A stretch of DNA of 64,000 nucleotides from an uncultured bacterium (GTDB lineage: Bacteria > Omnitrophota > Omnitrophia > Omnitrophales > Abzuiibacteriaceae): NCBI GenBank assembly GCA_964387845.1, contig CAYLXA010000004.1, positions 32,001-96,000 on the forward strand. Direction: 5' to 3'. Position 1 is the stretch's first letter. Each line of letters starts with the position of its first letter. A program made the translations under genes and the position numbers. This document shows, piece by piece, positions 1-52,184 of the stretch. The notes under the pieces were generated by a model that was given only the letters and a program-made list of their open reading frames with translations, was not told the DNA's origin and searched no databases.

Positions 1-51
1 TCCGCGTTTATTCTGAATACGCTCTTCTCTCAATTTACGGTCACGCAGCAC

Positions 52-18343: not shown

Positions 18344-18370
18344 GTGTGGGTAGAGTTTTGTCTACCCACA
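18344..18370. promoter_or_regulatory. 9 bp-stem inverted repeat (gtgggtaga gttttg tctacccac) upstream of the RHS gene.
   Basis: Read directly. Function unknown (operator or terminator). Confidence 0.3.
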
Positions 18371-18469
18371 GTAGATAAACCGCACTTTTTTGCTCTCCAA
18401 CATTGATTTTGTTTGACAGAGTGTCTATCTTTTTCTCACGAAGCAAAATTTCTTTCGGGAGGAAAGAAC

Positions 18470-21400: not shown

Positions 21401-24400
21401 GCTTTGGGAGGTGCGAAAGTCAAAACCGAGATGACGTATGACCCATTCGGAAATCTCCTTACCGTGAAAGATGCGAAAGGATTTGTGACGACGAATGAAT
21501 ATGACCCAACCTTTAAACTCTATCTCACAAAAGTCACGAACACCTTGGGCCATGCGCAGGAATTTACGTACGATCCTTTGATTGCGCAAATTACGCACGT
21601 CAAAGACCAAAATAATCAAATTTCACGCACGATTTACGATCCGCTCGGGCGGGCCGTGAAAGTGATTTCGCCGCTCGATTCCGATAGCGCGCCGACTCGA
21701 GCAACTTTTTACGATTTATCGGTTTTTCCAAACCGGATGGTAAGTTATGTGAAAATAGATTCCGATGCGCCCGCGCTTTCAATCGACGGCAATCCGCACG
21801 CCGGCTACCTGACCAGTTATTCATTCTCAGACGGCTTGGGGCGCGAAATCCAAAAGCGCAGCCCGGCTGAAGCTTCGAATCAACAAGTGGTTTCGGGGCT
21901 TGTTACGTATGATTCGCGCGGGCAGGTGAAGCGGCAGTATGTGCCGTATTACGCCGATTTCCGGACGACTTACGCCACACCGCCCACGAATTTTCCGTAT
22001 GCCGAGTTTGATTACGATGCGGTGGGCCGCAGAATTAAAACCACTTATCCCGACGGCGCATTCGCCACAATTCAATTTGATGATTTCACAAAAGTTCTCA
22101 CGGATCCAAACGGCCACGAAAAGCGCTACACGCAGGATGCTTACGGAAATCTAATCAAGGTCGAGGAGTTCAATCAGAGTCAAACTTACACGACGCGTTA
22201 TGAATATGACCGCTTGAATCGATTAATCAAAACCACGGATCACTACGGCCACGTCACCGAAGTCGAATATGACATGCTGGGCCGCAAGACAGCGATGGCC
22301 GATCCCAATATGGGCATTTGGGCTTACACGTATGACGCTAATAACAATTTGCTTACACAAACGGATGCCAAAAGCCAAACGATCACGTTTCAATATGATA
22401 ATTTAAACCGCTTAACTCGCAAAACCTATCCTGACGGTACGCATATTGACTACACGTATGATTTTTGCCCGCTTGAAGCTTGCGGCTGGCAGCCTGAATC
22501 AAACGTTTCTGTTGGTAAATTAGTCAAAGTCTCTGACCAATCAGGCATTCAAACTTTCCGGTACGACCAGCTCGGCAGAGTCATTCAAGACAAGAAATCC
22601 CTGGATAACGGTGAAGATTACACCTTCACCCGAATCTATGATCCGCAGGGAAGAGTGACTTCCTTAGAATATCCGGATCAAGATATTTTAAATCTTACTT
22701 TCAATAATATGGGCGAAGCTGAAACCTTAACCCTTATCCCTTACTCCTTACCTCTTGTGTCCATTATCCAAAACGTCAACTACAACCCAAGCGGCCAAAT
22801 CACGAAGATTGAATTCGGAAACGGTGTCGTGTCAGACTATACGTATAATCTCCAGACGCTTCGGTTAGAACGTCTCTTAACCCAGAACCAAGCGCAGGTT
22901 ACACTCCAAGATTTCACTTACGAGTTCGACAACGCAGGAAACGTCCAGTCCATCACGGATGCCGTCAACACCAACACGCAATCCTTTCTGTATGATGATC
23001 TAGACCGTCTCACGCAAGCCACGGGAAACTACGGCACCCATATCTTTGAATATAACGCCATCGGCAACATGACCCGTAAACACAATGCCTATTTAAATTA
23101 CACAGACCCTGCACATCCCCACGCTGTCACGCGTTATCAAAAAGGCGCTGAAGTGATTCAATATCAATACGATGCCAACGGTAATATGACCAAGCGCGGC
23201 AGTGATACCATTCTCTATGACTTTGACAACCGGCCCATCCGGATGGACCGTACCACAACCACAGGCGGCTGCGATGTCTATCCCGTGCCGATGGATTATT
23301 ATCAGACAACGCAATCACCCGGAACTGGTGATGACGGCAATGCGCTTCAAGCGCCAAGCCCACAGCCTGTAGCCGGCAGCCCGGGGCTTGTAGCCCGTAG
23401 CCAGCAGCCTGAAGCCGAAAGCGTGGCGCAAGGTAATCGGTCGACTCAAATCATGTATCCTTGTCCCAACCCCGGCCAAACCACCACCCACATGTTCGCC
23501 CAGTATGTCTATGACGCCTCGGGCCAGCGTGTGAAGAAAATCACGGACAACAAAATCGAATATTATCTTGGCAAGGATTATGAACTTAACTATACTAGCG
23601 ACCCGGTAGGAATGGGTTCTTTCTCAACCCGAAAAGCCTTCTTCTTGGGTGAGGCGCGCATCGCGGAATTTGAACAAATCCAAAATGCGGAAGGCGTGCC
23701 CCCGCATATTCGTTTCTTCCACGGCGATCACCTAGGTTCCACCAACATCATCACCAACGAACAGGGCAATCAAACCCTGCTCATGGAATATTTGCCGTAT
23801 GGTGAAGTGAAACTCCGCGTCGGAACAGATCCGGTCCAAAATACTTTCACAGGCCAAAAGGAAGACCTAGAATCCGGGCTCATGTACTACAACGCCCGCT
23901 ACTATGACCCGAAGATCGGTAGGTTCATTCAAGCTGATTCCATCGTTCCAAACGCGACGGATCCTCAAGAGTTTAATCGTTACAGCTACGTCAACAACAA
24001 CCCCATCAAATTCACCGACCCAACGGGACATAAGAAGAAGAAATGGTGGAAGAAGTTATTTAAACGTAAATCCACAAAAGGCGGCTTATTTGGAGCTATC
24101 ATTGGTGGAATTGTTGGTTCGATTGTGCCCGGAATTGGCACTGTCGCAGGAGCAAGTATTGGTGGTGCAATTGGTGGCGGAATTGGCGGCGGAATTGATG
24201 CCGCACAAGCTGGAGGTAATTTTGGTCAAATAGTACGAGGTGTTGTGTCAGGTGCCGTTGAAGGGTATCTGATTGGGCAAGTTATTGGTAATGTTACTGT
24301 CGGGGTCGGGCAATGGCTGGCTGCGATGAAGAATCCCGCAGCAGGTTTTGGGCATTATGGGATAAATGCCAACGATGTGCTCGCGAAATATGGAGGCAGA

Positions 24401-26289: not shown

Positions 26290-26364
26290 CGATCGGCTCT
26301 ATTGACCCTCCCACACACCTAATCCCCCCTTCATTTTTATCTGGAAGTGACGATAACTTAATAC

Positions 26365-26470
26365 AATTTCAAAATTCAAATTTCAAATCTCAAAACACTG
26401 TAAATATTGAGCATGCCTTGAGTTGGGCAGTTCTTGAATTTTGATATTTGAGATTTGAATTTATTCTGTT
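26365..26470. repeat. AT-rich inverted heptad-repeat element, copy 2 of 4.
   Basis: aatttcaaaattcaaatttcaaatctcaaaa ... ttttgatatttgagatttgaattt. Confidence 0.6.
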
Positions 26471-28305: not shown

Positions 28306-29735
28306 ACATTGAAGAATTTTGCAGATTAACAGGACTGGTCAATTTTGTTTGTTGTTTGTTATTTGCAATATTCATTTTTTCAAAGAATCCGCGAGAAAGA
28401 ACCCATCAGATTTTTGCTTTGTTTTCATTTTTTGTTGCGCTGTGGTCATTCGGCTATTTTTGTTTTCATTCTTATAATGCCGACTACGAATCCGCAGATT
28501 TTTGGATCCGGTTCTTAACACTCGGTTGCTGTCCCATTCCGGCTGTTTTTCTGCATTTCGTGGTAACGCTTTTACAATTAAATGATCGCCCTCTCTATAA
28601 ATGGCTTGTTGGCTTTGCCTATATTTTCTTTTTCTCGTTGATTTTATTCTCACCAACTTCGTTAATGGTCGCAAGTCTTGAACCTAAACATTGGTACCGT
28701 TTATGGCCTAATCCGGGTTTTTTGTGGCATTTCTATACTGCAGGATTTTTTATCACCGTATTATTTTCTCATTACCTTTTATTTAGAGCCGCGTTTCACT
28801 CTACAGGAGTTCGTCGAAAGCAACTAATGCTGGTTGCCGTGGGAACTTTGATTACGTTTTCCGGCGGTTCTACCAATTTTTTTCTTTGGTATGATATCAC
28901 AATCGCTCCCGTGTTAAATGGGTTTGGAATTCTTTACATTATTATTGTTTTCTATGCGGTTCTGAATTATCAATTTTTACAGGTGGAAGATGTCCTGGCG
29001 ATTCATAGAGATAAACTGATGCTGCTAGGGCTTATGTCATCGAGTTTGACGCATGAAATCAAAAATCCTTTGTTTCTAGTCAAAGGCTATACGGATAAAA
29101 TTACGGCGTTGGCGCAAAAGAAAAACGACACCGAAATCGCAGATGCCCTCCGCCATCTTTCAAGCCAAGTTTCCCGAATGAGCACGCTTGTTACGCGGCT
29201 TAGCGATTTCGGAAAGCCAAATCCTAACCCGGGCAAACAGGAAGATGTGGATGTGGCCCAAGCACTCGAGGATGCCTTATTTTTTGCAGAGCAAGAACTC
29301 AAGCATCACAACATTGAAGTTGTAAAGAAAATCGAGCTCAATCTGCCAAAATTGAAGGGTGATAAGAGTCAATTTGAGGAAATATTCTTGAATTTAATTA
29401 TGAATGCATTCCATTCTATGAAGAATGGCGGGAAATTAACCATTGAAGCAAAAATCCCTCACCCACGCTCCGCGTTACCCTCTCCCTCAGGGAGAGGGGA
29501 GGGTGAGGGCGGTATTGAAGTAATTATTTCCGATTCCGGAACCGGAATATCGAAAGAAAACCTCAAAAATATCTTCAAACCCTTTTACTCAACGAAAGGC
29601 AAACAAGGGACGGGCCTCGGCCTTCACATCGTCAAAACTCTCGTCGAACAGAATAGTGGCAAGATCTCAGTCGAAAGCGAAGTGGGTAAGGGAACAAGAT
29701 TTAAACTTTTATTCAACGCAGAACTCAGAGTATGA
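28302..29735 (+). CDS. Membrane sensor histidine kinase, paralog 2 of 4. Carries an in-frame REP-like insert.
   Basis: HEIKNPLF H box. Same HATPase motifs as HK1. Insert at 29456-29509. Confidence 0.8.
   Translation: MNIEEFCRLTGLVNFVCCLLFAIFIFSKNPRERTHQIFALFSFFVALWSFGYFCFHSYNADYESADFWIRFLTLGCCPIPAVFLHFVVTLLQLNDRPLYKWLVGFAYIFFFSLILFSPTSLMVASLEPKHWYRLWPNPGFLWHFYTAGFFITVLFSHYLLFRAAFHSTGVRRKQLMLVAVGTLITFSGGSTNFFLWYDITIAPVLNGFGILYIIIVFYAVLNYQFLQVEDVLAIHRDKLMLLGLMSSSLTHEIKNPLFLVKGYTDKITALAQKKNDTEIADALRHLSSQVSRMSTLVTRLSDFGKPNPNPGKQEDVDVAQALEDALFFAEQELKHHNIEVVKKIELNLPKLKGDKSQFEEIFLNLIMNAFHSMKNGGKLTIEAKIPHPRSALPSPSGRGEGEGGIEVIISDSGTGISKENLKNIFKPFYSTKGKQGTGLGLHIVKTLVEQNSGKISVESEVGKGTRFKLLFNAELRV
29456..29509. 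repeat. REP-like GC palindrome, in-frame in HK2. Encodes PHPRSALPSPSGRGEGEGG.
   Basis: ccctcaccc ... ccctctccc tca gggagagggg a gggtgaggg. Confidence 0.8.
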
Positions 29736-31081
29736 ACGCGTACAATTTATCCGTCTTATTTTTTGCTTACAGCGCCTTTCTCCTAAGCTTGCTGCTACTT
29801 GTTAAGAATAATGATCCCCTCAATCGCAGTTTTTTTATATTTAATATTTTTGTTTGCATGTGGGGATTTAACATATCCTGGATGCTGAATAGTTCAATTT
29901 CTTATGAAGAAGCCATGCTTGCGTCGCGTCTAGCAAACTTGGGAGCACTCTTTATTCCCCCGAGCTGGCTGGGATTTGTGTGTGCTTTTCTCGAAATAAA
30001 AGAAGAAAAATCGAGAATCATTAAGTTGATTTATATATTGAGCGCCTGCGTCGCTTTATTTAGCTTTAGCCCGCTTTATGTTTCTTCAGTAAAATCGTTT
30101 TCAGACTTCAAGTATTACACTGTAGCTGGCCCGGTCTATCATTTATTTACAATCGAATTTACACTTGTTGTCATGTATGGCTTTTATCATTTATTTAAAG
30201 CGCTCAAGGGGAAAACCGGTGTCAAAAGAACCCAACATATCGTATTCACATGCGCCATCGGTTTCGGTTTTGTTGGTGGCTCGCTGACATTTTTGCCGGT
30301 TTACAACATCCCGCTTCCTCAGTATGGATTATTTTTACTGCCGCTCTATCCGTTCTTAATGACATTTGCAATTATGAGGCATGGATTCTTGGATCAAGAT
30401 GATATTCTTGCCATCCATAAGGACAAGCTCGCGCTTTTGGGGCTCATTTCATCCAGCCTCAATCATGAAATCAAGAATCCTTTATTCTTGCTCAAAGGTT
30501 ACGTTCAGAAGATGGAATTAAGCACGAAAGATCCTTCTTTACCCAAAATGTCGGAACAAATCAGCCGGATGAGCAACTTGGTGGAGCGCCTGGGTGAATT
30601 CGCGAAGCCGGGCTCCGGGGCCAAAGAAGAGGTATATCTCGAAAAAGCTATTGATAACGCTCTGTTTTTTGCGATGCAAGAACTCAAATATCAAAATATC
30701 GAGGTGAAAACCGATATTCAGAAGCCGCTTCCCAATCCCATCGGCAATCGCGGCCAGTTTGAGGAAATTTTCCTCAATCTAATTGTGAATGCGTTTCATG
30801 CGATGTCGCCGGGCGGAGGCAAATTAACGATATCCGCTATATCCGAAATCCGAAATTCGAAATCCGAAATAATAATCACGATTTCCGACTCAGGATGTGG
30901 AATCCCCAAAGACCGCCTCAAGCGCGTATTTGAACCCTTTTATACCACCAAAACCGGCCGCGGCACCGGCCTCGGCCTTCACATCGTGAAAACCTTGGTC
31001 GAACAGAATGACGGCAAAATCTCGGTCGAAAGCGAAGTGGGCAAAGGCACGAAATTCAAATTGGAATTCAGCACAAAATGA
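29732..31081 (+). CDS. Membrane sensor histidine kinase, paralog 3 of 4.
   Basis: HEIKNPLF. NAFHAM. SDSGCGI. GTGLGL. A tccgaaa heptad x4 lies at 30833-30871, in the same loop position as the HK1/HK2 insert. Confidence 0.8.
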   Translation: MNAYNLSVLFFAYSAFLLSLLLLVKNNDPLNRSFFIFNIFVCMWGFNISWMLNSSISYEEAMLASRLANLGALFIPPSWLGFVCAFLEIKEEKSRIIKLIYILSACVALFSFSPLYVSSVKSFSDFKYYTVAGPVYHLFTIEFTLVVMYGFYHLFKALKGKTGVKRTQHIVFTCAIGFGFVGGSLTFLPVYNIPLPQYGLFLLPLYPFLMTFAIMRHGFLDQDDILAIHKDKLALLGLISSSLNHEIKNPLFLLKGYVQKMELSTKDPSLPKMSEQISRMSNLVERLGEFAKPGSGAKEEVYLEKAIDNALFFAMQELKYQNIEVKTDIQKPLPNPIGNRGQFEEIFLNLIVNAFHAMSPGGGKLTISAISEIRNSKSEIIITISDSGCGIPKDRLKRVFEPFYTTKTGRGTGLGLHIVKTLVEQNDGKISVESEVGKGTKFKLEFSTK

Positions 31082-32430
31082 ATCCATTTAGTCTCGCATT
31101 ATTGTTTTTCGCTTTTTGTTCGATTCTTATCGGTTTATTTGTTTTTTTAAAGCGTGATGATTACACCGGAAAGCTTTTTTTCTTCTGGAATATTTTAATC
31201 GCGGGCTGGGGAATTCCTGCTTCAATTGCATTCACTAACGAGGTAAGTTATCAAACCGCCTTATATGGAACTCGAATCGCTCATTTTTCATCTGTTCTAA
31301 TACCCGCAGCATGGCTTCATTTCGTTTTAGTATTTGTAGGAAAATTTGAACAAAAGAAAACATTGGTTCTATTTTTCTATTTCTATAGTTTGATTATAGA
31401 TTGCTTTGTTTTTACACCTTTTTTTATTCCTCATTCAGAACCCATGGTGGGATTTCGGTATTATCCAATGGGAGGAGTAGCCTATCACTTTTTTTCAATC
31501 GAATTCTTTACGGCAGTGCTTTTGGCATTTTATGAATTAGTAAGAGCCTATCAAGCTAGCTTTGGGGAAAAGAAAAAGCGCCTGGGTGTTTTAACATTAG
31601 CCACTTTTCTTGCTTACCTCGGTGGTTCTTTAACGTTTCTTCCTTTGTATCATATCCCATTTCCACAATATGGTTTATTCTTAATGCCGATTTATCCATT
31701 TATGATGGCATATGCAATGATTCGCCATGGCTTGCTTGACTCCGAAGAAATTCTTGCTATTCAAAAAGATAAACTGGCTCTACTTGGTCTTATGACTTCA
31801 AGTTTAAATCACGAAATCAAAAATCCACTGTTTTTGTTGCGCGGCTATGTTCAAAAGGCCAGAGGCGGAGAAGTTCAGTCGATTGATAAAATGACGGAAC
31901 AGATCGACCGGATCGGCAAGCTGACCGAGCGTTTAAGCGAATTCTCACGGTCAGGATCTGCTGTGGCACAAAAAGAAGAAGTCGATATCGCTCAAGCAAT
32001 CGAAAATGCACTGTTTTTTGCCAATCACGAACTGAAATATCATAATATTGAGATCAAAAAGGAAATCGATCCCAACCTACCCAAAGTTCTCGGCGACAAA
32101 GGCCAATTCGAGCAAATTTTCCTTAACCTAATTATGAACGCTTTCCACGCGATGTCGGGCGGAGGGCGATTGACGATCTCTGCTAAATCCGCACTCCGCA
32201 CTCCACACTCCGCAATTGAAATAAGCATCTCCGACTCTGGATGTGGTATTCCAAAAGAACAGCTTAAAAATATCTTTAAACCGTTCTATACTACGAAGGG
32301 CAAATCCGGCACCGGCTTGGGCCTGCATATTGTTAAAACCTTGGTCGAGCAGAATGGAGGAAAAATATCGGTTCAGAGCGAGGAGGGAAAAGGTACTGCT
32401 TTTTTGTTAAGTTTCTTAATTAACAGCTGA
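31078..32430 (+). CDS. Membrane sensor histidine kinase, paralog 4 of 4.
   Basis: HEIKNPLF. NAFHAM. SDSGCGI. An actccgc heptad x4 lies at 32188-32214, in the same loop position. Confidence 0.8.
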   Translation: MNPFSLALLFFAFCSILIGLFVFLKRDDYTGKLFFFWNILIAGWGIPASIAFTNEVSYQTALYGTRIAHFSSVLIPAAWLHFVLVFVGKFEQKKTLVLFFYFYSLIIDCFVFTPFFIPHSEPMVGFRYYPMGGVAYHFFSIEFFTAVLLAFYELVRAYQASFGEKKKRLGVLTLATFLAYLGGSLTFLPLYHIPFPQYGLFLMPIYPFMMAYAMIRHGLLDSEEILAIQKDKLALLGLMTSSLNHEIKNPLFLLRGYVQKARGGEVQSIDKMTEQIDRIGKLTERLSEFSRSGSAVAQKEEVDIAQAIENALFFANHELKYHNIEIKKEIDPNLPKVLGDKGQFEQIFLNLIMNAFHAMSGGGRLTISAKSALRTPHSAIEISISDSGCGIPKEQLKNIFKPFYTTKGKSGTGLGLHIVKTLVEQNGGKISVQSEEGKGTAFLLSFLINS

Positions 32431-36755: not shown

Positions 36756-39197
36756 ATGCTTCAACAGTACTTCATAGCACTTTTCATATCCGGACTTTCT
36801 CATACCCTTCTTGCAACTTTTGTCTATTTGAATAGTAAGTCAAAGTCATCAAATATCACTTATGTGGGCTATTCATATTCGATTGCTTTTTGGAGTTGCG
36901 GTCAAGCATTTGCCATAATCCAGCATCAATATCAAGCTGGACTATATTTATGGCGGATAAGCCATATCGGAGTAATATTCATACCCGTTTTCTTTGTGCA
37001 TTTCGTAATGAGCCTGTTCCCCTCCGAACGACAGACTAAGCAGCAGTTCGTTTTATTTCTCTCTTATTGTTTTGGTATATTCTTCTTTATATTAAATTTT
37101 CTTGGGTACCTAATATCCGACGTAAGCCCTAAAGGTCACTTTAGGTTTGCGATGGAACCGGGCCCTTTATACTTGATGTTTGTTTTAGTCTGGGTAATAT
37201 GGGTTTCGTATGGTTTGTTGAAATTATTTAAGCTATATCAGATTTCGAATGAAAGCAGAAGAAAGCAGCTGCAATATTTTTCTGTTTCCATGTTTTTTGC
37301 GTACGTAGGTGGTGCACCAAATTTCTTGCCAGCGTTTCGTATAGAAGTACCAATTCTTATGCCATATGGTACTTACGCTATAGCGATTTATGCTTTTTTT
37401 ACAGCATTTGCAATTGTAGAGCATCGTCTTTTTGATATCGAAGTCATTATCAAGAAAACGCTTGTGTTTGCGGGACTGACGTCATTCGTGTTCGGCGTTT
37501 TTGCGGGCATTACGTTCCTGGCGCGGGAGATTTTGAGCACGTATGTGCAGGTCCCGAGCGCGGTGGCGAACATCCTGAGTATTGCAATTGTCGTGCTTTG
37601 CTATGATCCGCTCCGGAATTTCCTTGTGAATGTGACGGACCGCTTTCTGTCTCAGAAAAAATTCAATTACGCGAAAGTCCTCAGAGAAACGAGCAAAGAC
37701 ATCGCGCTTGTGACGAGCCTGACGGAACTGACGCGGCGGATTATCGCGGTGTTGATCCGAAAAGCCCGCACCAAGAACACGGCGATTTTTATCCGCAACG
37801 TGAAGGACGATCATTTGGAACTCAAGGGCTGTTACGGCTACGGCCGCAAAAACCGGCCCGACATAGTTCTGCAATCTGAAAGCACGATCGTGAAATTTCT
37901 CGATGAACACCAGCAGCCCTTTACGCGCCAGCAGCTCGAAGAAGAGAAGACGAGAGTCACGGACCCTGAAAGACGCGACCGCATCAGCATTATTCTGCAG
38001 CTTATGAATATTCTCAAAGCGCAAGTCGTGGTGCCGAGTTTCCTCGGAGGTGCGGCGGAAATCACCGGCAATCAAAAATCAGGCACAAGTTTGCGGAGTC
38101 TCCTGATTCTGGGCGAGAAAAAGTCTGATGAGGATTATTACGAAGAAGATCTCGACATGCTTGCCACGCTTGCGCAAGAACACGCCATTGCGTTTGAAAA
38201 CGCACGGCTCTTCGATGAAGCGCTCGAACGTTCCAAAGAACTTCAGCAAATGAACACCGAACTTGTGAAAGTGCAAGCCGACCTTTTAAATTCGCTGAAT
38301 GAAACCGAGCTCGCGAGCCGGAAACTCCACGAAGCGCAGGCCGCACTGATCGTTGCCGAAAAGAACGCCACCATGGTCGGCATGGCAAAGGCCATCGGCC
38401 ACGAGGTCAACAATCCGCTTTCGACCGTCGCGGGCCGCGCGATGTTCATCCAAAAAACCCGGCTTCCGAAAGTAAAAGACATTATCGAGCGCTACAAAGG
38501 AAAAATCACGGCGGAAGAATATGAGCTGGCGAGGACGAGCTTTGAAAAAATAGACGACGACAGCACGCGCATCGCGACCTGCGCCAAGCGGATCGAAATC
38601 GTCGTCAAAACCCTCACCGGCATCATGAAAGAATCCACCGGCGAATTACAGCCGCTCAGTTTTCTCGTCTTGTGGAAGGAAGCCGCCGAAGCCGTGCGCT
38701 TTAATACCTACGAGGAGAACCTTTCAAGCTGCCAGATCATCGAAGGCATTGCGGCGAATTTGATTGTGCAGGGAAACCTTGAGCAGCTGATTCAAGTCTT
38801 CCTCAATCTGATCAAAAATTCCTACGAGGCGATGATGAATCAGGCGGAGAAATGCATCACGGTCAAAGCCGATGTGGACCCGGATGACCCGCGCTATGCG
38901 CTCATTGTCGTCTCCGATAACGGCCCGGGGATTCCGCCGGATATTCTGCCCAAAATTTGGGGCCAAGGGTTCAGCACTAAAAAGAAAACCAGTTCCGATA
39001 TCGGCGCGGTCGGGCAAGGGCAGGGGCTTTATATCGTCAAACATATGGTCGAGTCGGTCCATAAGGGCACGATCATTGCCGAAAGCATGCCGGGCCACGG
39101 GACTTCCTTCATTATCCGCCTTCCGATTGCGGAGGAGCATGTGGTGATGCGGACGAATGACCAATCAAATAAGACAGAAGTAGCGGATAGCGGGTAG
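36756..39197 (+). CDS. Large membrane sensor histidine kinase with a 7TM-type N-terminus, a GAF-like/coiled-coil middle and HisKA + HATPase_c.
   Basis: H box GHEVNNPLS. N/G boxes NLIKNSYEAM, SDNGPGIP, GQGLYI. Confidence 0.8.
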   Translation: MLQQYFIALFISGLSHTLLATFVYLNSKSKSSNITYVGYSYSIAFWSCGQAFAIIQHQYQAGLYLWRISHIGVIFIPVFFVHFVMSLFPSERQTKQQFVLFLSYCFGIFFFILNFLGYLISDVSPKGHFRFAMEPGPLYLMFVLVWVIWVSYGLLKLFKLYQISNESRRKQLQYFSVSMFFAYVGGAPNFLPAFRIEVPILMPYGTYAIAIYAFFTAFAIVEHRLFDIEVIIKKTLVFAGLTSFVFGVFAGITFLAREILSTYVQVPSAVANILSIAIVVLCYDPLRNFLVNVTDRFLSQKKFNYAKVLRETSKDIALVTSLTELTRRIIAVLIRKARTKNTAIFIRNVKDDHLELKGCYGYGRKNRPDIVLQSESTIVKFLDEHQQPFTRQQLEEEKTRVTDPERRDRISIILQLMNILKAQVVVPSFLGGAAEITGNQKSGTSLRSLLILGEKKSDEDYYEEDLDMLATLAQEHAIAFENARLFDEALERSKELQQMNTELVKVQADLLNSLNETELASRKLHEAQAALIVAEKNATMVGMAKAIGHEVNNPLSTVAGRAMFIQKTRLPKVKDIIERYKGKITAEEYELARTSFEKIDDDSTRIATCAKRIEIVVKTLTGIMKESTGELQPLSFLVLWKEAAEAVRFNTYEENLSSCQIIEGIAANLIVQGNLEQLIQVFLNLIKNSYEAMMNQAEKCITVKADVDPDDPRYALIVVSDNGPGIPPDILPKIWGQGFSTKKKTSSDIGAVGQGQGLYIVKHMVESVHKGTIIAESMPGHGTSFIIRLPIAEEHVVMRTNDQSNKTEVADSG

Positions 39198-39219
39198 CGT
39201 TTAGCGTATAGAAATAAAA

Positions 39220-39576
39220 ATGAGTACAAAAACTCGAAGTTTCAGAGATTTGATTGTATGGCAGAAATCGTATCAGTTGGTAATAGAAATCTATCAAATA
39301 ACAAAAGGCTTCCCAAAAGAGGAGTTGTACGGCTTAGTACAACAAATTCGCCGTTCAGCGGTTTCAATTCCCTCAAACATTGCGGAAGGTTATGGACGGC
39401 AGTTTCAAAAGGAATACAAGCAATTTTTATCAATTTCTTACGGCTCTCTTTGCGAATTGGAAACACAATATTTGATTGCAGTGGATTTGAAATATATTCA
39501 GAGAGTTCCATCATTGGAAGATTTAATGAAAGAAGTAGGAGCCATTCTTTATCGGATGATCAATCCTATCCGCTAA
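39220..39576 (+). CDS. Four-helix-bundle protein (23S rRNA intervening-sequence protein family, TIGR02436).
   Basis: DLIVWQKSYQL ... FPKEELYGLVQQIRRSAVSIPSNIAEGYGR signature. Confidence 0.8.
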   Translation: MSTKTRSFRDLIVWQKSYQLVIEIYQITKGFPKEELYGLVQQIRRSAVSIPSNIAEGYGRQFQKEYKQFLSISYGSLCELETQYLIAVDLKYIQRVPSLEDLMKEVGAILYRMINPIR

Positions 39577-39598
39577 ACGCTATGCGCTGTACGCTATT

Positions 39599-39970
39599 AT
39601 GAAACGTATACTTATTTGCGACGACGAAGAAGAGATTTGCGAATTTCTCAAAGAGACGCTTGTCTCGGAAGGTTTTGAGGCCGTATCTTTCATTGCCGGC
39701 GAAAAAGCCATGGAAGCTTCGGCAAAACAGAGCTTCGATTTGGCGATTGTAGACTTGAAGCTCCAAACCGCCGTGAGCGGACTTGACCTGGTCCAATTTT
39801 TGCGCCACCGCCAGCCGCATATTAAAATCATCGTGATTACGGGCTACATCGACGCCGGGCTCAAATACGCAGCTGAATCCGCCGGCATCAGCGCTTTCGC
39901 CGAAAAGCCCCACGCCGTCCGGCCTGACGTGATTTTGCCGCTTGTCAAGCAAGCGTTGGGGATGCGGTAG
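39599..39970 (+). CDS. Response regulator, receiver domain only.
   Basis: ILICDDEEEI, DLAIVDLKL, KP receiver motifs. Confidence 0.8.
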   Translation: MKRILICDDEEEICEFLKETLVSEGFEAVSFIAGEKAMEASAKQSFDLAIVDLKLQTAVSGLDLVQFLRHRQPHIKIIVITGYIDAGLKYAAESAGISAFAEKPHAVRPDVILPLVKQALGMR

Positions 39971-40107
39971 TGCGCTGCAAGCTTCAAGCCGCAGGCCTCA
40001 TGCTGCAGCCACAAGCCACAAGCTTCAGGCTACATGCTACAGGCGATAAGTTTAAAGCTTGAGGCTTGCAGCTTGTAGCCTGAAGCGTGCAGCATGAAGC
40101 TTGAAGC
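39971..40107. repeat. 137 bp inverted array of GC heptad repeats. The left arm is about 8 caagcc-type heptads and the right arm is the reverse complement (aagcttg / aggcttg-type). It is intergenic.
   Basis: Left: gcaagct tcaagcc gcaggcc tcatgct gcagcca caagcca caagctt. Right: aaagctt gaggctt gcagctt gtagcct gaagcgt gcagcat gaagctt. Confidence 0.7.
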
Positions 40108-40181
40108 TAAATAGTCATTGCCCATCTGTAAAATCTTCATTAAAATCAAGCCATTTAACCATTGAGAAAGCGAGTTATGAC

Positions 40182-40343
40182 ATGAGCATGCCGGGACCTT
40201 TCGAGTTAGTCATTATCTTTCTTGTCATTCTGCTTCTTTTCGGAGGCAAAAAGCTGCCCGAAATCGGCAAAGCCATCGGTGAAGGCATCCGCGAATTTAA
40301 GCGGGCGATGGGCGACGGGGATAAGAAGGACGAGAAGAAATAA
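40182..40343 (+). CDS. tatA: Sec-independent translocase component TatA/E.
   Basis: MSMPGPFELVIIFLVILLLFGGKKLPEIGKAIGEGIREFKRAM. The start was moved to the internal ATG, which follows a GAGAAAG ribosome-binding site. Confidence 0.8.
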   Translation: MSMPGPFELVIIFLVILLLFGGKKLPEIGKAIGEGIREFKRAMGDGDKKDEKK

Positions 40344-40446
40344 ATTCAAATTTCAAAATTTAAATTTCAAAACAAATTCTAAATCCAAAATATTTCAAAT
40401 TTGAAATTTTAGCATTGTTTTGAATTTTGATATTTGAATTTGATAA
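40344..40446. repeat. AT-rich inverted heptad-repeat element, copy 3 of 4, between tatA and tRNA-Arg.
   Basis: aattcaaatttcaaaatttaaatttcaaaa ... ttttgaattttgatatttgaatttga. Confidence 0.6.
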
Positions 40447-40452
40447 AGAAAT

Positions 40453-41465: not shown

Positions 41466-41479
41466 TCAAGTTATAAGTG

Positions 41480-41532
41480 GTAAGTGATAAGTGTTAAGCC
41501 GATCAACTACTTACCACTTACCACTTACCACT
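41480..41532. terminator. Inverted heptad array (taagtgN x3 / ccactta x3) between the convergent CDF and exbD genes. Probable bidirectional terminator.
   Basis: taagtgg taagtga taagtgt taagcc gatcaa ctactta ccactta ccactta ccactta cg. Confidence 0.5.
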
Positions 41533-41948
41533 TACGACTGAACGCGCGTTTGGAGGACGACGTTCTTCGCGCCGCTGTCGCGCACAACCTGAAGAATGTT
41601 CACGAGCGCCTGCACCGAAGCCTGCTTGTCAGAGCGCAACACCACGCGCTCGTTTTGAATGGTTTCATCCTTGAGTTTCGCCTCCAGCGCACTCATCTCA
41701 ATCGGTTCGTTATTCCAAAGCAGGTTGCCTTTCCGGGTGAGCATGATTTCGTGCTCGGTCCGGACGAGGTCTACTTTTCCGGATGTGACGCGCGGAAGGT
41801 CAACTTTGAGCGGCGAGAGTTTTTCCTGGCCGAAAGTGGCGATCAGGCTGAAGGTGATAAAGAAAAAGAGAAACAAATTCATGACGATATCAGTCAGCGC
41901 AATGGACTCCAGCGTGACGTGATTCTTGCCGCGGGGTTTAAATCGCAT
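41532..41948 (-). CDS. exbD: ExbD/TolR biopolymer transport protein.
   Basis: Single N-terminal TM helix plus a periplasmic domain. Typical ExbD length and profile. Confidence 0.75.
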   Translation of the reverse strand: MRFKPRGKNHVTLESIALTDIVMNLFLFFFITFSLIATFGQEKLSPLKVDLPRVTSGKVDLVRTEHEIMLTRKGNLLWNNEPIEMSALEAKLKDETIQNERVVLRSDKQASVQALVNILQVVRDSGAKNVVLQTRVQS

Positions 41949-44232: not shown

Positions 44233-44289
44233 CCGATCAATTTCCGTCATTGGCTTTTTAGTTCTATTATCGTAAAATAGCGGTTTCGC

Positions 44290-44404
44290 GGTGACCGTAG
44301 CTTCCGCCACAAATCGTGGCGGACCCGCCGCGCAGTATGGCGGGCAATCTGGTCGTCATCAAAGATGACGACTCGATTTCGCTGCGCACAAGTCGAATGA
44401 TTAT
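44290..44404 (+). other. Duplicated 5' fragment of tRNA-His (ggtgaccgtagct) followed by three tandem perfect hairpins, immediately upstream of the intact tRNA-His.
   Basis: The 13 nt at 44290-44302 are identical to the tRNA 5' end at 44405-44417. Hairpins: tccgccacaaatcgtggcgga, cccgcc..ggcggg, tcgtcatcaaagatgacga. Confidence 0.5.
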
Positions 44405-44483
44405 GGTGACCGTAGCTCAATCTGGTTAGAGCACAAGATTGTGGATCTTGGGGTTGCGGGTTCAATTCCCGTCGGTCACCCCA
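44405..44483 (+). tRNA. tRNA-His (anticodon GTG) with G-1 and encoded CCA.
   Basis: G-GTGACCG-TA-GCTC-AATCTGGTTA-GAGC-A-CAAGA-TTGTGGA-TCTTG-GGGTT-GCGGG-TTCAATT-CCCGT-CGGTCAC-C-CCA. Confidence 0.85.
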
Positions 44484-44806
44484 TTTGCCTTGAGCTCGAT
44501 TTGGTGCCAATCTCAAGGCAAATGGTGCTATCGCATTAAAAATCAAAAACAATTTTGGGAGGCGATTGCCCCCACACTCCGGACCCCGCCCCACGTTTTT
44601 AAAGTTGTTTGATCCTCTTAGAAAAGGCGAGAATTGGCTCCAGAAGGAGCAAAACAACGACGCGGGCAAATAAAAAGCATACCTCAGCCTGGAAACGGGG
44701 TTGCTTGGCTTTGCCAAGACTGCCATCAATTCTCGTCTGCCTCAGATAATCCCATTTCAATACAGATAAAATCCACTCTTTTTAAGAGAATAATTTGAAA
44801 AAATCA

Positions 44807-49087: not shown

Positions 49088-49253
49088 GCTTTGAAGAAGC
49101 CCTCCGCTCAATGGATTCACCGTGAGAAATCTATTCACTCCGGCATTGGAACACCTTCCGCTCAAAACGTCGCAGTCATCGGCTTTCCAATGCCTCCGCA
49201 CATGATTTCTCTCTCGCGAATCCAATTCGCCTCGGCGCTTCTTCAAGGCTTTT
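49086..49253. mobile_element. MITE-like element, copy 2 (about 168 bp). Same terminal inverted repeats as copy 1, with an internal deletion.
   Basis: aagctttgaagaagc ... gcttcttcaaggcttt. Immediately after the cysA stop. Confidence 0.7.
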
Positions 49254-49278
49254 GGAAATACGGGAAGAACCTCCTATT

Positions 49279-49420
49279 GCGAGAGCGGCGTCGAGAGAAC
49301 GAGCTTCAGGTCGAAGCGAGTGAACGAGCCGCAGTGAGCACGGCAATTTTTGCTTAGCCGGTTGGGCTAAAAATTGTCGGGCGGAACGTAGCGACGCAAT
49401 GGGAGGTTCTGACCGGTGAT
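49279..49420 (+). ncRNA. Copy C of the three-copy structured intergenic module.
   Basis: gagagcggcgtcgagagaacgag ... gagtgaacgagccgcagtgagcacg ... hairpin caatttttgcttagcc..gggctaaaaattg ... cgtagcgacgcaa. Confidence 0.4.
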
Positions 49421-49487
49421 TTTCTGACAATAATTAGCACAGGTTACAATGACGGAAGGCGCTTGACAGGTTTGTTATACTGACGGC

Positions 49488-49809: not shown

Positions 49810-51138
49810 ATGCGGAAACTATCCGCTCTTATTATGGTTGTATTCTGTTTTTTCTGCTTTGCAAAATGTAAAGAAGCCCGTGCAAGCGAAGCGCTTCTCA
49901 CAGCGCTTCAGGAACAGGTGACGGGCTTGAGCGATTTGGTCAAGTCGCTTCAAACTACCGTTCAAAGTCAAAGTAAGCTCATCGAATCTCAAGGAGCCAA
50001 AATTGTTTATTTGGAGGGATCTCTTGAGAAAGGTGCTGCGCTTCCGAAACCTGCTTCTGAACCTGCCGGAGCGCCCAAAATGAGCGGCCTGTCGCAGGGG
50101 CTGAATCCTGAGATCGGCCTTGTGGCATCGATTCAGGCCAATTCGACCGAAAGCACCGAAGACGGCGAAGGAAACGATACCATTGCGCTCAAAGAGGCCG
50201 AGCTGTCAATTTCGCAGTACGTTGACCCCTTTTCCCGTTTGGACGGCATTATTGCGTTTAACGACAATTTAGAAGAGCAAAATGTCGATGTGGAAGAGCT
50301 TTATTACACGCACTGGGGGATTCCGCTCGGGTTTCGCGGGCAAATCGGAAAATTCCGGTCCAAAATCGGAAAGACCAATTTGCTGCATTCTCACCAACTC
50401 GATACCGTGGATTATCCGCTCGTGATCCGTGATTTCTTCGGTGAACATGGTTTGTCATCATCTGGCGCGCGGCTTCAGAACATGATTCCGAATCCGTTCG
50501 ACATTCCGATCGAAGTGACAGGCGAAATTCTGCGCGGCAATAACGGCACAAGCTTCTCAGGTGTTTCACGCCGGCCGATTTTTAATTCTCATGTCAGTAC
50601 GTTCTTCCAAACCTCCGAGAATACGAACCTCGAAGTTGGCGGAACGGCGATCTTCGGCGATGAAAATCCCGCCGTTATCGAGTATGACGGAGAATCGGAT
50701 GTGCTTTTGGATCCCGAGATTCCGGAAGCCGGGAGCGATAAGTACGGTGTCCGGGTATTCGGCGCCGATGCGACTTTTAAATGGGATTTGCCCGAAGGAA
50801 GGTCTATTAAGTGGCAGAATGAAATTTATTTTCAAAACCGGGGTTCGAATACGCGCCATGCAAATTTGTTTCCGTGGGGATTTTATTCTTTAATCGATCA
50901 CCGGCTGTCAAAGCGTTTTAGTGTTGGATTGCGGGTTGATTATGTAGAGCCGCTTGATTTTGTCGATCATGACACTGTTGGCGTCTCGCCCTACATTACA
51001 TTTTGGCAAAGTGAATTTGCGAATTTTCGGCTTCAATATTCGTACACCAAACCAGCAGACGGAGCTTTGGAGCCTAATAACGAAGTGTTTTTAAAGGCAA
51101 ACGTCTTGATTGGCGCACATCGGCATCCGGTGCAGTAA
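49810..51138 (+). CDS. Putative outer-membrane beta-barrel / porin-like protein with an N-terminal coiled-coil.
   Basis: Signal peptide. Coiled-coil LTALQEQVTGLSDLVKSLQ. Alternating beta-strand pattern. Same architecture as the 57619-59151 porin. Confidence 0.45.
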   Translation: MRKLSALIMVVFCFFCFAKCKEARASEALLTALQEQVTGLSDLVKSLQTTVQSQSKLIESQGAKIVYLEGSLEKGAALPKPASEPAGAPKMSGLSQGLNPEIGLVASIQANSTESTEDGEGNDTIALKEAELSISQYVDPFSRLDGIIAFNDNLEEQNVDVEELYYTHWGIPLGFRGQIGKFRSKIGKTNLLHSHQLDTVDYPLVIRDFFGEHGLSSSGARLQNMIPNPFDIPIEVTGEILRGNNGTSFSGVSRRPIFNSHVSTFFQTSENTNLEVGGTAIFGDENPAVIEYDGESDVLLDPEIPEAGSDKYGVRVFGADATFKWDLPEGRSIKWQNEIYFQNRGSNTRHANLFPWGFYSLIDHRLSKRFSVGLRVDYVEPLDFVDHDTVGVSPYITFWQSEFANFRLQYSYTKPADGALEPNNEVFLKANVLIGAHRHPVQ

Positions 51139-51232
51139 TATCAAATTTCAAATATCAAATATCAAAATTCTGAATTTGAGATTGAGTATTGGAATTTGTT
51201 TTATATTTTGATATTTGGATTTTGATATTAAA
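51139..51232. repeat. AT-rich inverted heptad-repeat element, copy 4 of 4.
   Basis: atatcaaatttcaaatatcaaatatcaaaattc ... ttttatattttgatatttggattttgatatt. Confidence 0.6.
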
Positions 51233-51245
51233 CTTTGGAGAGAGT

Positions 51246-52184
51246 ATGGTATTCAAAAAAAGCGCTGTAGTTGCAATGATTCTTGTATGCTGCGTGTTTC
51301 AGCCAAAATCGGTTGCTGCTGCCGATAAAATTCGGATTGTCGCGACCACCAGCACGATCGCGAGCCTCGCGCAAGAAATTACGGGCGGCTTGGCGGATAT
51401 CCACTATGTGGCATCCGCCAAGCGCGATGTTCATTTTGCGGCGCCCAATCCAAAAGATGTCTTGAAGGTCAAAAAGGCCGATGTGTTTATCCACGGAGGC
51501 CTTGATCTAGAGGTTTGGCGCCAGCCGCTTCTGGATGCGGCGGGCAATCCGGCGTTTTTGGGCAATCAAGAAAGAGCCATTGATGTATCGAGGGGAATTC
51601 GGCTTTTGGAAGTTCCCGAAACTCTTTCGAGGGCCGAAGGCGATATCCATGTTTTCGGAAATCCGCATTATTGGCTCGATCCACACAATGCCAAAATCAT
51701 GGCGGACAATATCGCCGAGAAATTATCGCAGATTTTTCCCCAACATCAGGATCGGTTTCGGGAAAATCTCGGGCAATTTCATAACAGGCTTGATGAAAAG
51801 CTGCGCAGTTGGAAGGCGCGTATGGCACCGTTTCAGAACACGACTGTGATCGTATATCACAAGAGCTGGCCCTACTTTGCTGATCGTTACGGATTGACAA
51901 TTATTGGTGAAATCGAGCCAAAGCCCGGCATTCCGCCTAGCGCCAAGCACATCGGCATGCTTCTGAAAATGATTCCTCAAGAGCGTGTACAGTTGATTAT
52001 CACAGAATCGTTCCGCGACAGCAGTGTGACTAAGAAAATTTCAAAAGAAACCGGCATTCCGGTCGTCACTCTCGCCCAAGCGGTAGGAGAGAATGAGCGA
52101 TCAAGTGATTATTTGACTATGATGGAGCATAACATTTGGTTGGTTGAAGAAGCGTTAACGCGACAAGGAGACCGTCATGCTTGA
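51246..52184 (+). CDS. Metal (Zn/Mn) ABC transporter substrate-binding protein, ZnuA/TroA family.
   Basis: The start was moved to the ATG after GGAGAG. Signal peptide. DIHVFGNPHYWLDPHNAK metal-site motif. Confidence 0.75.
   Translation: MVFKKSAVVAMILVCCVFQPKSVAAADKIRIVATTSTIASLAQEITGGLADIHYVASAKRDVHFAAPNPKDVLKVKKADVFIHGGLDLEVWRQPLLDAAGNPAFLGNQERAIDVSRGIRLLEVPETLSRAEGDIHVFGNPHYWLDPHNAKIMADNIAEKLSQIFPQHQDRFRENLGQFHNRLDEKLRSWKARMAPFQNTTVIVYHKSWPYFADRYGLTIIGEIEPKPGIPPSAKHIGMLLKMIPQERVQLIITESFRDSSVTKKISKETGIPVVTLAQAVGENERSSDYLTMMEHNIWLVEEALTRQGDRHA

Follow-up and report, generated by a model that had tools for sequence, protein, structure and literature searches.

Inverted heptanucleotide arrays in an Omnitrophota genome: a hairpin between a receiver gene and tatA, and short-period arrays at the ends of PF05635 genes

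Background

What is a long hairpin built of seven-nucleotide units doing between two protein genes of an uncultured bacterium? The question is raised by a stretch of 64,000 nucleotides from a member of Omnitrophota (family Abzuiibacteriaceae; GenBank assembly GCA_964387845.1, contig CAYLXA010000004.1, positions 32,001 to 96,000 of the forward strand). We call the whole stretch the window, and its positions are numbered from its first letter. At 39974-40108, between a response-regulator receiver gene and tatA, tandem heptads are followed by their reverse complements. We show that this element is a heptanucleotide tandem-repeat hairpin of the kind known as short tandemly repeated repetitive (STRR) elements or long simple sequence repeats (SSR) in cyanobacteria, Xanthomonas, Beggiatoaceae and Geobacter. 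It has no open reading frame (ORF) and is one of the period-7 arrays enriched in its lineage. Whether it acts as a stem of RNA or single-stranded DNA (ssDNA) at an operon boundary is, in our opinion, evenly balanced.

Cyanobacterial STRR sequences were described in 1990. Their 7-bp units form hairpins between genes such as hupS and hupL, and a role in transcript stability or termination has been proposed. A study of 2007 reportedly showed heptanucleotides to be the most over-represented long SSR in many prokaryotes, with polymerase slippage proposed as the source. We found no report of heptanucleotide arrays in Omnitrophota in the literature.

Results and discussion

Anatomy and fold of the hairpin

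The hairpin and its surroundings include the following features.
39599..39970, + strand: response-regulator receiver gene (PF00072), whose stop codon abuts the hairpin
39974..40050, + strand: forward arm, 10 CA-N-GC-N-N heptads and degenerate apex units (seen in the sequence, by Tandem Repeats Finder (TRF) and by pattern search)
40052..40108, + strand: reverse arm, 8 N-AGC-N-TG heptads (seen in the sequence, by TRF and in the fold)
40118..40146, + strand: tatA promoter, sigma-70-like, directly 3' of the hairpin
40182..40343, + strand: tatA (PF02416), the downstream gene

Read from position 39978, the forward units are CAAGCTT, CAAGCCG, CAGGCCT, CATGCTG, CAGCCA (the single unit of 6 nt), CAAGCCA, CAAGCTT, CAGGCTA, CATGCTA and CAGGCGA. 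After an apex of about 10 nt come the reverse-complement units at 40055-40108: AAGCTTG, AGGCTTG, CAGCTTG, TAGCCTG, AAGCGTG, CAGCATG, AAGCTTG and AAGCT. TRF calls period 7 at 40007-40041 and at 40055-40108. A degenerate 5-unit pattern has 16 matches in the window and none in 100 shuffles; all 16 fall in this hairpin or at 16396-16473.

The predicted fold is a single long stem interrupted by a 1x1 mismatch at intervals of about 7 nt. Its minimum free energy (MFE) is -71.4 kcal/mol, compared with -53.7 ± 4.2 kcal/mol for shuffled sequences (z = -4.25). A first description of the locus, made by a model without database searches (the sequence-only reading), had proposed a large GC-rich hairpin of about 8 plus about 8 heptads after the receiver gene. 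The hairpin and its two inverted arms are confirmed by the units themselves and by the fold; the reverse count of 8 agrees, while the forward arm has 10 units. The G+C content is 54% versus 47% for the window, so the hairpin is just mildly GC-rich.

The element takes up the whole gap from the receiver gene to the -35 box of the tatA promoter. Its start is 4 nt behind the stop codon of the receiver gene (TAG, 39968-39970) and its end 10 nt before the promoter, which reads TTGCCC-17-TAAAAT and has a counterpart, TTGCCT-17-TAGAAT, in the sister species described below. The window has no rRNA, and the hairpin lies between protein genes. An Rfam scan of the window matched two tRNAs and nothing else, so no family is assigned at 39974-40108. 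The reading as a CRISPR array was rejected: the repeat period is 7 nt and spacers are lacking, whereas CRISPR arrays have repeats of 25-40 nt with unique spacers.

Period-7 arrays across the window

Two censuses of tandem arrays were made, a stringent one with a lag-match criterion and one with TRF; both were run on the 64 kb of the window. The stringent census gives 11 arrays at period 7 (17.2 per 100 kb) and none at periods 4-6 or 8-11, and there are no stringent arrays in Markov shuffles of the window. TRF gives 18 separate period-7 arrays, or 28.1 per 100 kb, with at most 9.4 for any other period. Seven of the 11 stringent arrays sit in intergenic DNA, which makes up roughly 5% of the window.

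The units are of at least six flavours. The CA-N-GC-N-N flavour is that of 39974-40108 and of 16402-16473 and, in a weaker relative, of 23356-23425. Four alignable copies, listed below, make up an AT-rich NTTCAAA family. The further flavours are TAAGTGG (41466-41545), TAGCGNN (39181-39211 and 39566-39596), TCCGAAA (30836-30872), TCCGCAC (32183-32217) and CCTTAAC (22716-22752). The hairpins between genes, in addition to the one at 39974-40108, are the following.
14253..14350, + strand: hairpin of the AT-rich family, filling the def-ahpC gap
26364..26462, + strand: hairpin of the AT-rich family, upstream of an operon of response-regulator (RR) and histidine-kinase (HK) genes
40342..40447, + strand: AT-rich hairpin (four NTTCAAA units, a loop, four TTTGAAN units), from the tatA stop codon to a tRNA-Arg gene on the minus strand
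51135..51229, + strand: hairpin of the AT-rich family, from the stop codon of the gene at 49810-51138
41466..41545, + strand: TAAGTGG / CCACTTA hairpin between the convergent genes for a cation diffusion facilitator (CDF) transporter and exbD (z -6.7)

Every intergenic array in the window is an inverted pair, and the folds are more stable than those of shuffles (z between -3.2 and -6.7). Stop codons lie no more than a few nucleotides from the array starts at 14253, 39180, 39566, 39974, 40342, 41466 and 51135, and the intergenic arrays run up to the promoter, the ribosome-binding site or the convergent stop of the next gene. Array lengths range from 3 to 17 units, many arms having 4-5. A terminator scan found no stem-plus-T-run site in the intergenic gaps of 26-46 kb; all its matches were intragenic.

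Thus both censuses bear out the period-7 signal in several flavours, coding and non-coding, that the sequence-only reading had pointed to, and the excess over other periods is seen in these 64 kb and again in 41 kb of the sister species. The flavours it had named are real. The list was incomplete in that it lacked the NTTCAAA family with its four copies, TAGCGNN, TCCGCAN/TCCGAAA and CCTTAAC, and the TAAGTGG / CCACTTA structure near 41.5 kb, placed by it at 41480-41532, extends over 41466-41545. The idea that a genome-specific process generates the repeats does not hold: the sister species has the excess too, and multi-flavour heptad arrays are known, phylogenetically scattered, in cyanobacteria, Xanthomonas, Beggiatoaceae and Geobacter.

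Two side observations concern gene calls. The mechanical start of the ORF at 51189-52184 falls inside the right arm of the AT-rich hairpin, and an ATG near 51236, preceded by GGAG, is the likelier start. A comparable case is locus L089 of the sister species, where the N-terminus called for the TMTC-like gene (10001-10073) is an inverted heptad hairpin between genes (TGCGGAA / TCCGCAC). In practical terms, heptad arrays give spurious N- or C-terminal extensions and low-complexity peptides in gene calls.

Arrays inside genes

Five arrays are in-frame in protein-coding genes.
16402..16473, + strand: CA-N-GC-N-N hairpin in a variable loop of a TMTC-like glycosyltransferase/TPR gene
22716..22752, + strand: CCTTAAC-type array in an RHS gene
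23356..23425, + strand: weaker direct-only N-AGC-C-N-G array in the RHS gene, no hairpin
30836..30872, + strand: TCCGAAA array in a beta-hairpin loop of the HATPase_c domain of a seven-transmembrane (7TM) histidine kinase
32183..32217, + strand: TCCGCAC array in the same loop of the next histidine-kinase paralogue

The array in the TMTC-like gene belongs to the same unit family as the hairpin at 39974-40108 and is in-frame, as had been read before. It is not in direct orientation: 6 forward units and 4 reverse ones form a hairpin (-41 kcal/mol, z -3.1). It occupies a loop of variable length among homologues, and the orthologue in the sister species carries a diverged heptad copy in the same loop with a palindromic repeat, GGGGACCGTCCCC, nested at its apex. 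The array at 23356-23425 in the RHS gene is indeed in-frame and direct-only; it is a weaker relative (67% matches), has reverse-type units only and forms no hairpin (z +0.9). In general, direct-only in-gene arrays of the window do not fold.

The four tandem 7TM histidine-kinase paralogues are unlike each other in one beta-hairpin loop of their ATPase domain. There two of them have heptad arrays, and the other two an unrelated CCCTC/GGGAG palindromic element; the same permissive site has been hit by different repeat types. The stretches concerned are 27928-28305, 29352-29735, 30746-31081 and 32086-32430, and the CCCTC...GGGAG inserts yield peptides such as PHPLSLSLREREERSEGEGG.

Distribution among relatives

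A murJ gene lies 2.5 kb downstream, and the closest named relatives of its product are in Candidatus Omnitrophica. The sister species (JGI 3300028648; MurJ 78% identical) keeps the gene order tatA-CDF-exbD-exbB-murJ and, elsewhere, def-ahpC-...-TMTC-RR-HKs. TRF finds 19.4 period-7 arrays per 100 kb in its 41 kb, and three assemblies of this species are identical at their array. The convergent CDF/exbD gap contains an inverted heptad hairpin in both species, with TAAGTGG units in the window versus TTAATGT / ACATTAA in the sister: the hairpin has been kept while the unit sequence was replaced. The def-ahpC hairpin is not in the sister species, where that gap does not exist.

Four distant Omnitrophota loci (77 kb in total, MurJ 51-69% identical) have no stringent arrays versus about 13 expected at the density of the window. 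The TRF density of period-7 arrays is 5.2 per 100 kb in these distant loci and 3.9 in a control set of other phyla, and the stringent density in the control set is 0.7. The control set comprises 80 loci (1.15 Mb) among the matches listed in a MurJ-alignment search; a contig search with the single MurJ protein gave no matches. Among the sequences sampled, the period-7 excess is restricted to the species of the window and its sister.

A metagenome scan with the unit skeleton gave heterogeneous matches, many of them perfect SSRs of unrelated organisms, and is not a clean census of the family. Among the matches listed is a Nostocales-like contig (L116) that has, within 13.8 kb, 11 arrays made of several of the classic STRR units. 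The matches listed also include two unrelated metagenome contigs, L109 (4622-4661 and 5383-5420) and L157, that carry flavours of the window, AATCCGC/AATCCGA (like the arrays in the HK loop) and CAAGCCN/GGCTTGA. Marine contigs with GC of 0.37-0.47 (L091, L093, L095, L098, L101, L102, L104, L105, L119, L128, L129, L138, L164, L165 and L169) have several CAAGCNN arrays each, with CAAGC fixed and NN different in almost every unit. In L098, L102 and L138, for which the ORF context was examined, most of these arrays lie in short intergenic gaps.

Comparison with known heptanucleotide repeats

The arrays of the window resemble STRR sequences in having tandem 7-nt units, several per genome, which are dispersed, mostly intergenic and form hairpins between co-transcribed genes. 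The Nostocales-like contig L116, with the classic units CCCCAGT and CAACAGT, has the same multi-flavour density. The differences are that the host is not a heterocystous cyanobacterium and that the units are not CCCCAGT, TTGGTCA or CAACAGT. In addition, nearly every intergenic array of the window is an inverted pair abutting a stop codon, and several arrays are in-frame in protein loops. STRR sequences reportedly also occur inside the gene for RNase P RNA, to go by the title alone of a paper by Vioque of 1997.

The long SSRs of Xanthomonas and Nostoc (GGGAATC/GGGGAYT), Beggiatoaceae (TAACTGA) and Geobacter (GGGACCG) share the period-7 excess and the mostly intergenic location. Those of Xanthomonas and Nostoc also include some inverted pairs between convergent genes, and their length and sequence turn over at the same site between close relatives. 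However, those genomes are dominated by a single unit, whereas the window has at least six flavours in 64 kb. Its arrays have no G-quadruplex potential and, unlike TAACTGA, show no preference for positions upstream of start codons.

Unit architecture

The 26 units of the CA-N-GC-N-N family, taken from both arms at 39974-40108 and from the TMTC-like gene, are invariant at positions 1, 2, 4 and 5, and their variation is confined to positions 3, 6 and 7. The other flavours are built likewise, with an invariant core of 4-5 nt and 2-3 free positions. With four invariant and three free positions, simple slippage alone does not explain the CA-N-GC-N-N units. Palindromic covariation of positions 3 and 6 in the AAGCTT-like hexamer was looked for by eye and is not consistent.

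PF05635 genes bracketed by arrays

The TAGCGNN arrays of the window bracket a gene.
39181..39211, + strand: left array TAGCGGA TAGCGGG TAGCGTT TAGCGTA, overlapping the last codons and stop of a histidine-kinase gene
39220..39576, + strand: PF05635 gene (23S rRNA intervening-sequence protein / S23p, Avd-like), placed in the loop that the inverted arrays enclose
39566..39596, + strand: right array TCCGCTA AACGCTA TGCGCTG TACGCTA, encoding the last PF05635 residues and stop

The two 31-nt arrays of this cassette are 84% complementary, and the right one ends 2 nt ahead of the ATG of the receiver gene. The cassette as a whole (39181-39596) lies about 380 nt upstream of the hairpin at 39974-40108. 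PF05635 proteins are related to Avd, the accessory protein of diversity-generating retroelements. To our knowledge, these genes have been without a known function since 1993.

We compared 18 independent PF05635 loci: that of the window, a locus in an unrelated high-GC metagenome contig (L133), three close homologues and thirteen plasmid-borne genes. In L133 the gene lies between (GCAACAG/GCAACAA)x17 and the reverse complement, with another gene upstream and an atpD-like gene on the other side. The three close homologues, each known from 8-10 samples, are arranged as pabB-IVP-pabC, atpC-IVP and yajC-IVP-secD, where IVP is the intervening-sequence protein gene. Short-period arrays are present at the ORF ends in all 18 loci, which come from several phyla. 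Their arrangements are as follows.
Inverted arrays, period 7: 13 loci
Inverted arrays, period about 8: 2 loci
Direct heptads on both sides: 2 loci
Non-complementary heptads: 1 locus

Up to 130 nt from the PF05635 ORF ends, stringent arrays have a density of 4.0 per kb, versus 0.72 per kb in the farther flanks. The right array mostly encodes the last residues of the protein and its stop (NPIR and stop = AATCCTATACGCTAA). Wherever a PF05635 gene has two annotated neighbours it is co-oriented with both, with gaps of about 17-135 nt; the exception is Stanieria. Three plasmid genes are inside cas operons, with flanking short-period arrays: cas6-IVP-cas4 twice and cas10-IVP-cmr3 (L240, L244 and L247, from plasmids of Anabaena sp. 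90, Pseudanabaena galeata and Picosynechococcus). The arrays of the Pseudanabaena locus are direct, 14 copies of AAAGCTA and 10 of AAAGCCA. The plasmid matches to PF05635 are largely cyanobacterial (26 of 30), and 24 of those 26 belong to Nostocales. At the pabB-pabC site, sampled ten times (L210-L219) with an identical PF05635 protein, the left nAGCGnn array has 13 units in eight samples and 4 in the other two (L213 and L216), and the right array is invariant.

One of the 13 loci with inverted period-7 arrays is a genuine 23S rRNA intervening sequence (IVS) with a PF05635 ORF. It is found on plasmid AZO_p2 of Azospirillum lipoferum 4B (L248, 13998-15130; LSU_rRNA model, 492 bits), and its stem consists of inverted heptads of the GGACGGA / TGACAGA type. 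The PLSDB gene table has no annotation at this place because RNA genes are omitted there. The stem of the Coxiella burnetii IVS likewise contains tandem GACAGAT heptamers, 2 or 3 copies depending on the strain, and RNase III cuts within the stem. In the literature we found the link between PF05635 and heptamers described for Coxiella alone, and no paper generalising it.

The hairpin at 39974-40108 shares with the 23S rRNA IVS of Coxiella and Leptospira a long stem formed by terminal inverted repeats, and with those of Coxiella and Azospirillum the heptads of that stem. It differs in not being in 23S rRNA (helix 25 or 45) and in having no ORF in its loop; the adjacent cassette at 39181-39596 does have an S23p / PF05635 ORF there. 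The presence of arrays around PF05635 genes in all 18 loci, including a genuine 23S rRNA IVS, suggests that heptad hairpins and IVS elements may form one class. In a speculative form, which we consider unlikely, STRR-type heptad hairpins and ORF-containing 23S rRNA IVS would be one class of elements with a stem of inverted 7-nt arrays, a PF05635 gene in the loop of the complete form, co-directional insertion into transcription units (rRNA, housekeeping and cas operons) and release by RNase III. Hairpins with no ORF, such as that at 39974-40108, would then be non-autonomous or decayed derivatives, and S23p might act on the arrays with about one unit per subunit.

Possible role of the hairpin

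The reading that we consider as having even chances is that the ORF-less hairpin serves as a stem at the operon boundary. Arrays would arise and change length unit by unit through slipped-strand or template-switch events on the 7-nt unit. Such changes are seen in related arrays (4 versus 13 units at pabB-pabC, 2 versus 3 between Coxiella strains) and, by analogy, probably occur at 39974-40108 as well. In the transcript, or in ssDNA, the inverted arms would then pair into a long duplex, mismatched about once every 7 nt and with many registers of nearly equal value; for 39974-40108 this duplex is predicted by folding. It may act as a barrier at the 3' end, as an RNase III site, or as both, separating the upstream transcript of polyketide synthase (PKS), HK and RR genes from tatA. 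We infer the boundary role from the position, from the absence of other terminators and from the Coxiella IVS as a precedent for RNase III.

Several findings weigh against this role. The MFE structure makes up just 5% of the ensemble, and shifting the register by multiples of 7 nt leaves the complementarity of the arms, 0.66-0.76, much the same. The arms thus pair through the common unit consensus and not through one mirror-image order, and there is no sign of selection for a single defined structure. For termination or 3' protection a far shorter hairpin would do, and no T-run follows the stem after 40108. The non-uniform variation of the units is not predicted by slippage with neutral decay, and hints at a partner that reads the sequence or at a special generating mechanism. 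The one other assembly of this organism (Logan SRR15237813) matches the window at 100% identity over 16.5 kb and gives no example of ongoing length variation at 39974-40108. Finally, the TCCGCAC array of the HK loop has an almost identical counterpart in the sister species (L089 17142-17177), from which it follows that some arrays are old and stable.

The hairpin may instead be functionally neutral, a by-product of a lineage-specific bias of replication or repair that is tolerated after stop codons and in surface loops of proteins. We regard this as rather unlikely, although it accounts for arrays that are in-frame in variable protein loops, where a role at RNA boundaries makes no sense, and for the existence of direct-only arrays. 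It also fits the simple lack of the def-ahpC hairpin in the sister species and of a unique pairing register in 39974-40108. What neutrality does not predict is that every intergenic array is inverted; the retention of a hairpin with a wholly different unit in the orthologous CDF/exbD gap and the four invariant positions out of seven speak against it as well.

A little more doubtful is that 39974-40108 is an ORF-less, non-autonomous or decayed, member of a family of IVS-type PF05635 cassettes that insert co-directionally and are excised from RNA by RNase III. This origin and the boundary role are compatible and do not exclude each other. A complete cassette lies just upstream, the 18 loci are all bracketed by arrays (13 with inverted period 7, one of them within 23S rRNA), and the genes follow the direction of their neighbours with one exception. 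The heptamers of the Coxiella IVS sit in a stem cleaved by RNase III, and plasmid PF05635 genes come overwhelmingly from Nostocales, the classic hosts of STRR sequences. However, the flavour of the hairpin is CA-N-GC-N-N, versus TAGCGNN around the only PF05635 gene of the window, and this one gene compares with at least 10 ORF-less arrays. The 41 kb of the sister species have 8 arrays and no PF05635 gene, and neither target-site duplications nor a transposition enzyme have been identified.

An improbable reading is that a protein binds along the hairpin and recognises a core of 4-5 nt in each 7-nt step of one RNA or ssDNA strand. Such a protein could be of the cold-shock type with an OB fold, a ring like that of HutP, or the pentameric S23p. 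The invariant core with 2-3 free positions in every flavour and the many arms of 4-5 units would suit such a protein. There is a precedent in CspB, which reportedly binds heptamer repeats with one protein per unit, and S23p is reported to be a homopentameric toroid. On the other hand, array lengths vary from 3 to 17 units, and no gene for a candidate binder shows a specific link with the arrays. Each flavour has a completely different core, and a single sequence-specific reader therefore cannot serve them all.

Mobilisation by a REP-associated tyrosine transposase (RAYT, a Y1 transposase), as for repetitive extragenic palindromic (REP) sequences, bacterial interspersed mosaic elements (BIME) and hairpins of paired REPs (REPINs), is very improbable: these elements are also intergenic, often intercistronic hairpins of about 100 nt with two inverted arms and many dispersed copies, and the sister species has a Y1_Tnp gene, but the arms at 39974-40108 are tandem heptads instead of palindromes of 20-40 nt with a GTAG/CGTC head, the window has no Y1_Tnp gene, and that of the sister species is flanked by another palindrome, GGGGACNGTCCCC, so that with no RAYT gene accompanied by the same repeats both defining features fail. 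For REP-type elements, stabilisation of mRNA 3' ends has been hypothesised.

The hairpin is not a canonical intrinsic terminator, and that it is one, or a contingency SSR for phase variation, is hardly credible: it does lie directly after a stop codon and ahead of a promoter, Rho-independent terminators also being found after stop codons, at operon ends and between convergent genes, and SSRs can drive phase variation, but its stem of about 135 nt is 5-10 times longer than that of a terminator, with regular mismatches and no U-tract, and the array is neither in a promoter spacer nor in a 5' coding region, is identical in two assemblies and has in-gene counterparts conserved between species, so that each of the two readings fails defining features.

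Other repeats and gene calls

Further repeats were noticed in the course of the analysis. In the sister species (L089 7292-8090) inverted GGGGACNGTCCCC palindromes stand on both sides of the Y1_Tnp (RAYT-like) gene, and they recur in-frame (L089 10755-10799), nested at the apex of the heptad hairpin in the TMTC-like gene. A palindromic element CCCTCTCCC...GGGAGAGGGTAGGGTGAGGG occurs at 15270-15308 and about 16200-16293 of the window and at 5160-5210 of locus L001, both between genes and within the reading frame of the TMTC-like gene (NPHPNPLPQVGEGIKEVFPRPVGERGRVRG). The orthologue in the sister species lacks the in-frame copy. Two 400-nt intergenic gaps (13291-13690 and 49088-49487) contain a common long GC-rich repeat of strong structure, with an MFE of about -150 to -160 kcal/mol; a third gap (18130-18412) has one hairpin of it (GATGATTTTTAGCC...GGCTAGGCAAAAATCATCG), and the repeat has no Rfam match. 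The short motif GTCATTGCGAG recurs in intergenic gaps (15250 and 17807 of the window).

Two gene calls deserve mention. The minus-strand ORF at 44247-44729 (160 aa) overlaps tRNA-His (44406-44483, + strand), has no Pfam match and is unlikely to be a gene. The start of the window cuts a giant ORF (1-13290), of which more than 4,429 aa lie inside; the corresponding call in the sister species (locus L089, at 1-7292) has 17,398 aa.

Conclusions

The element at 39974-40108 extends the known but unexplained phenomenon of heptanucleotide repeats to a new, uncultivated phylum. Two features constrain any mechanism for heptad arrays: the invariant core with 2-3 free positions, and the replacement of the unit at an orthologous site while the hairpin is kept. 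The association of PF05635 genes with heptads is of larger value and is the part worth taking further. Its sites range from a true 23S rRNA IVS to the operons of pabB-pabC, atp, yajC-secD and cas genes. Should the association hold genome-wide, it would join two old puzzles, the origin and role of STRR sequences and the nature of IVS elements and S23p.

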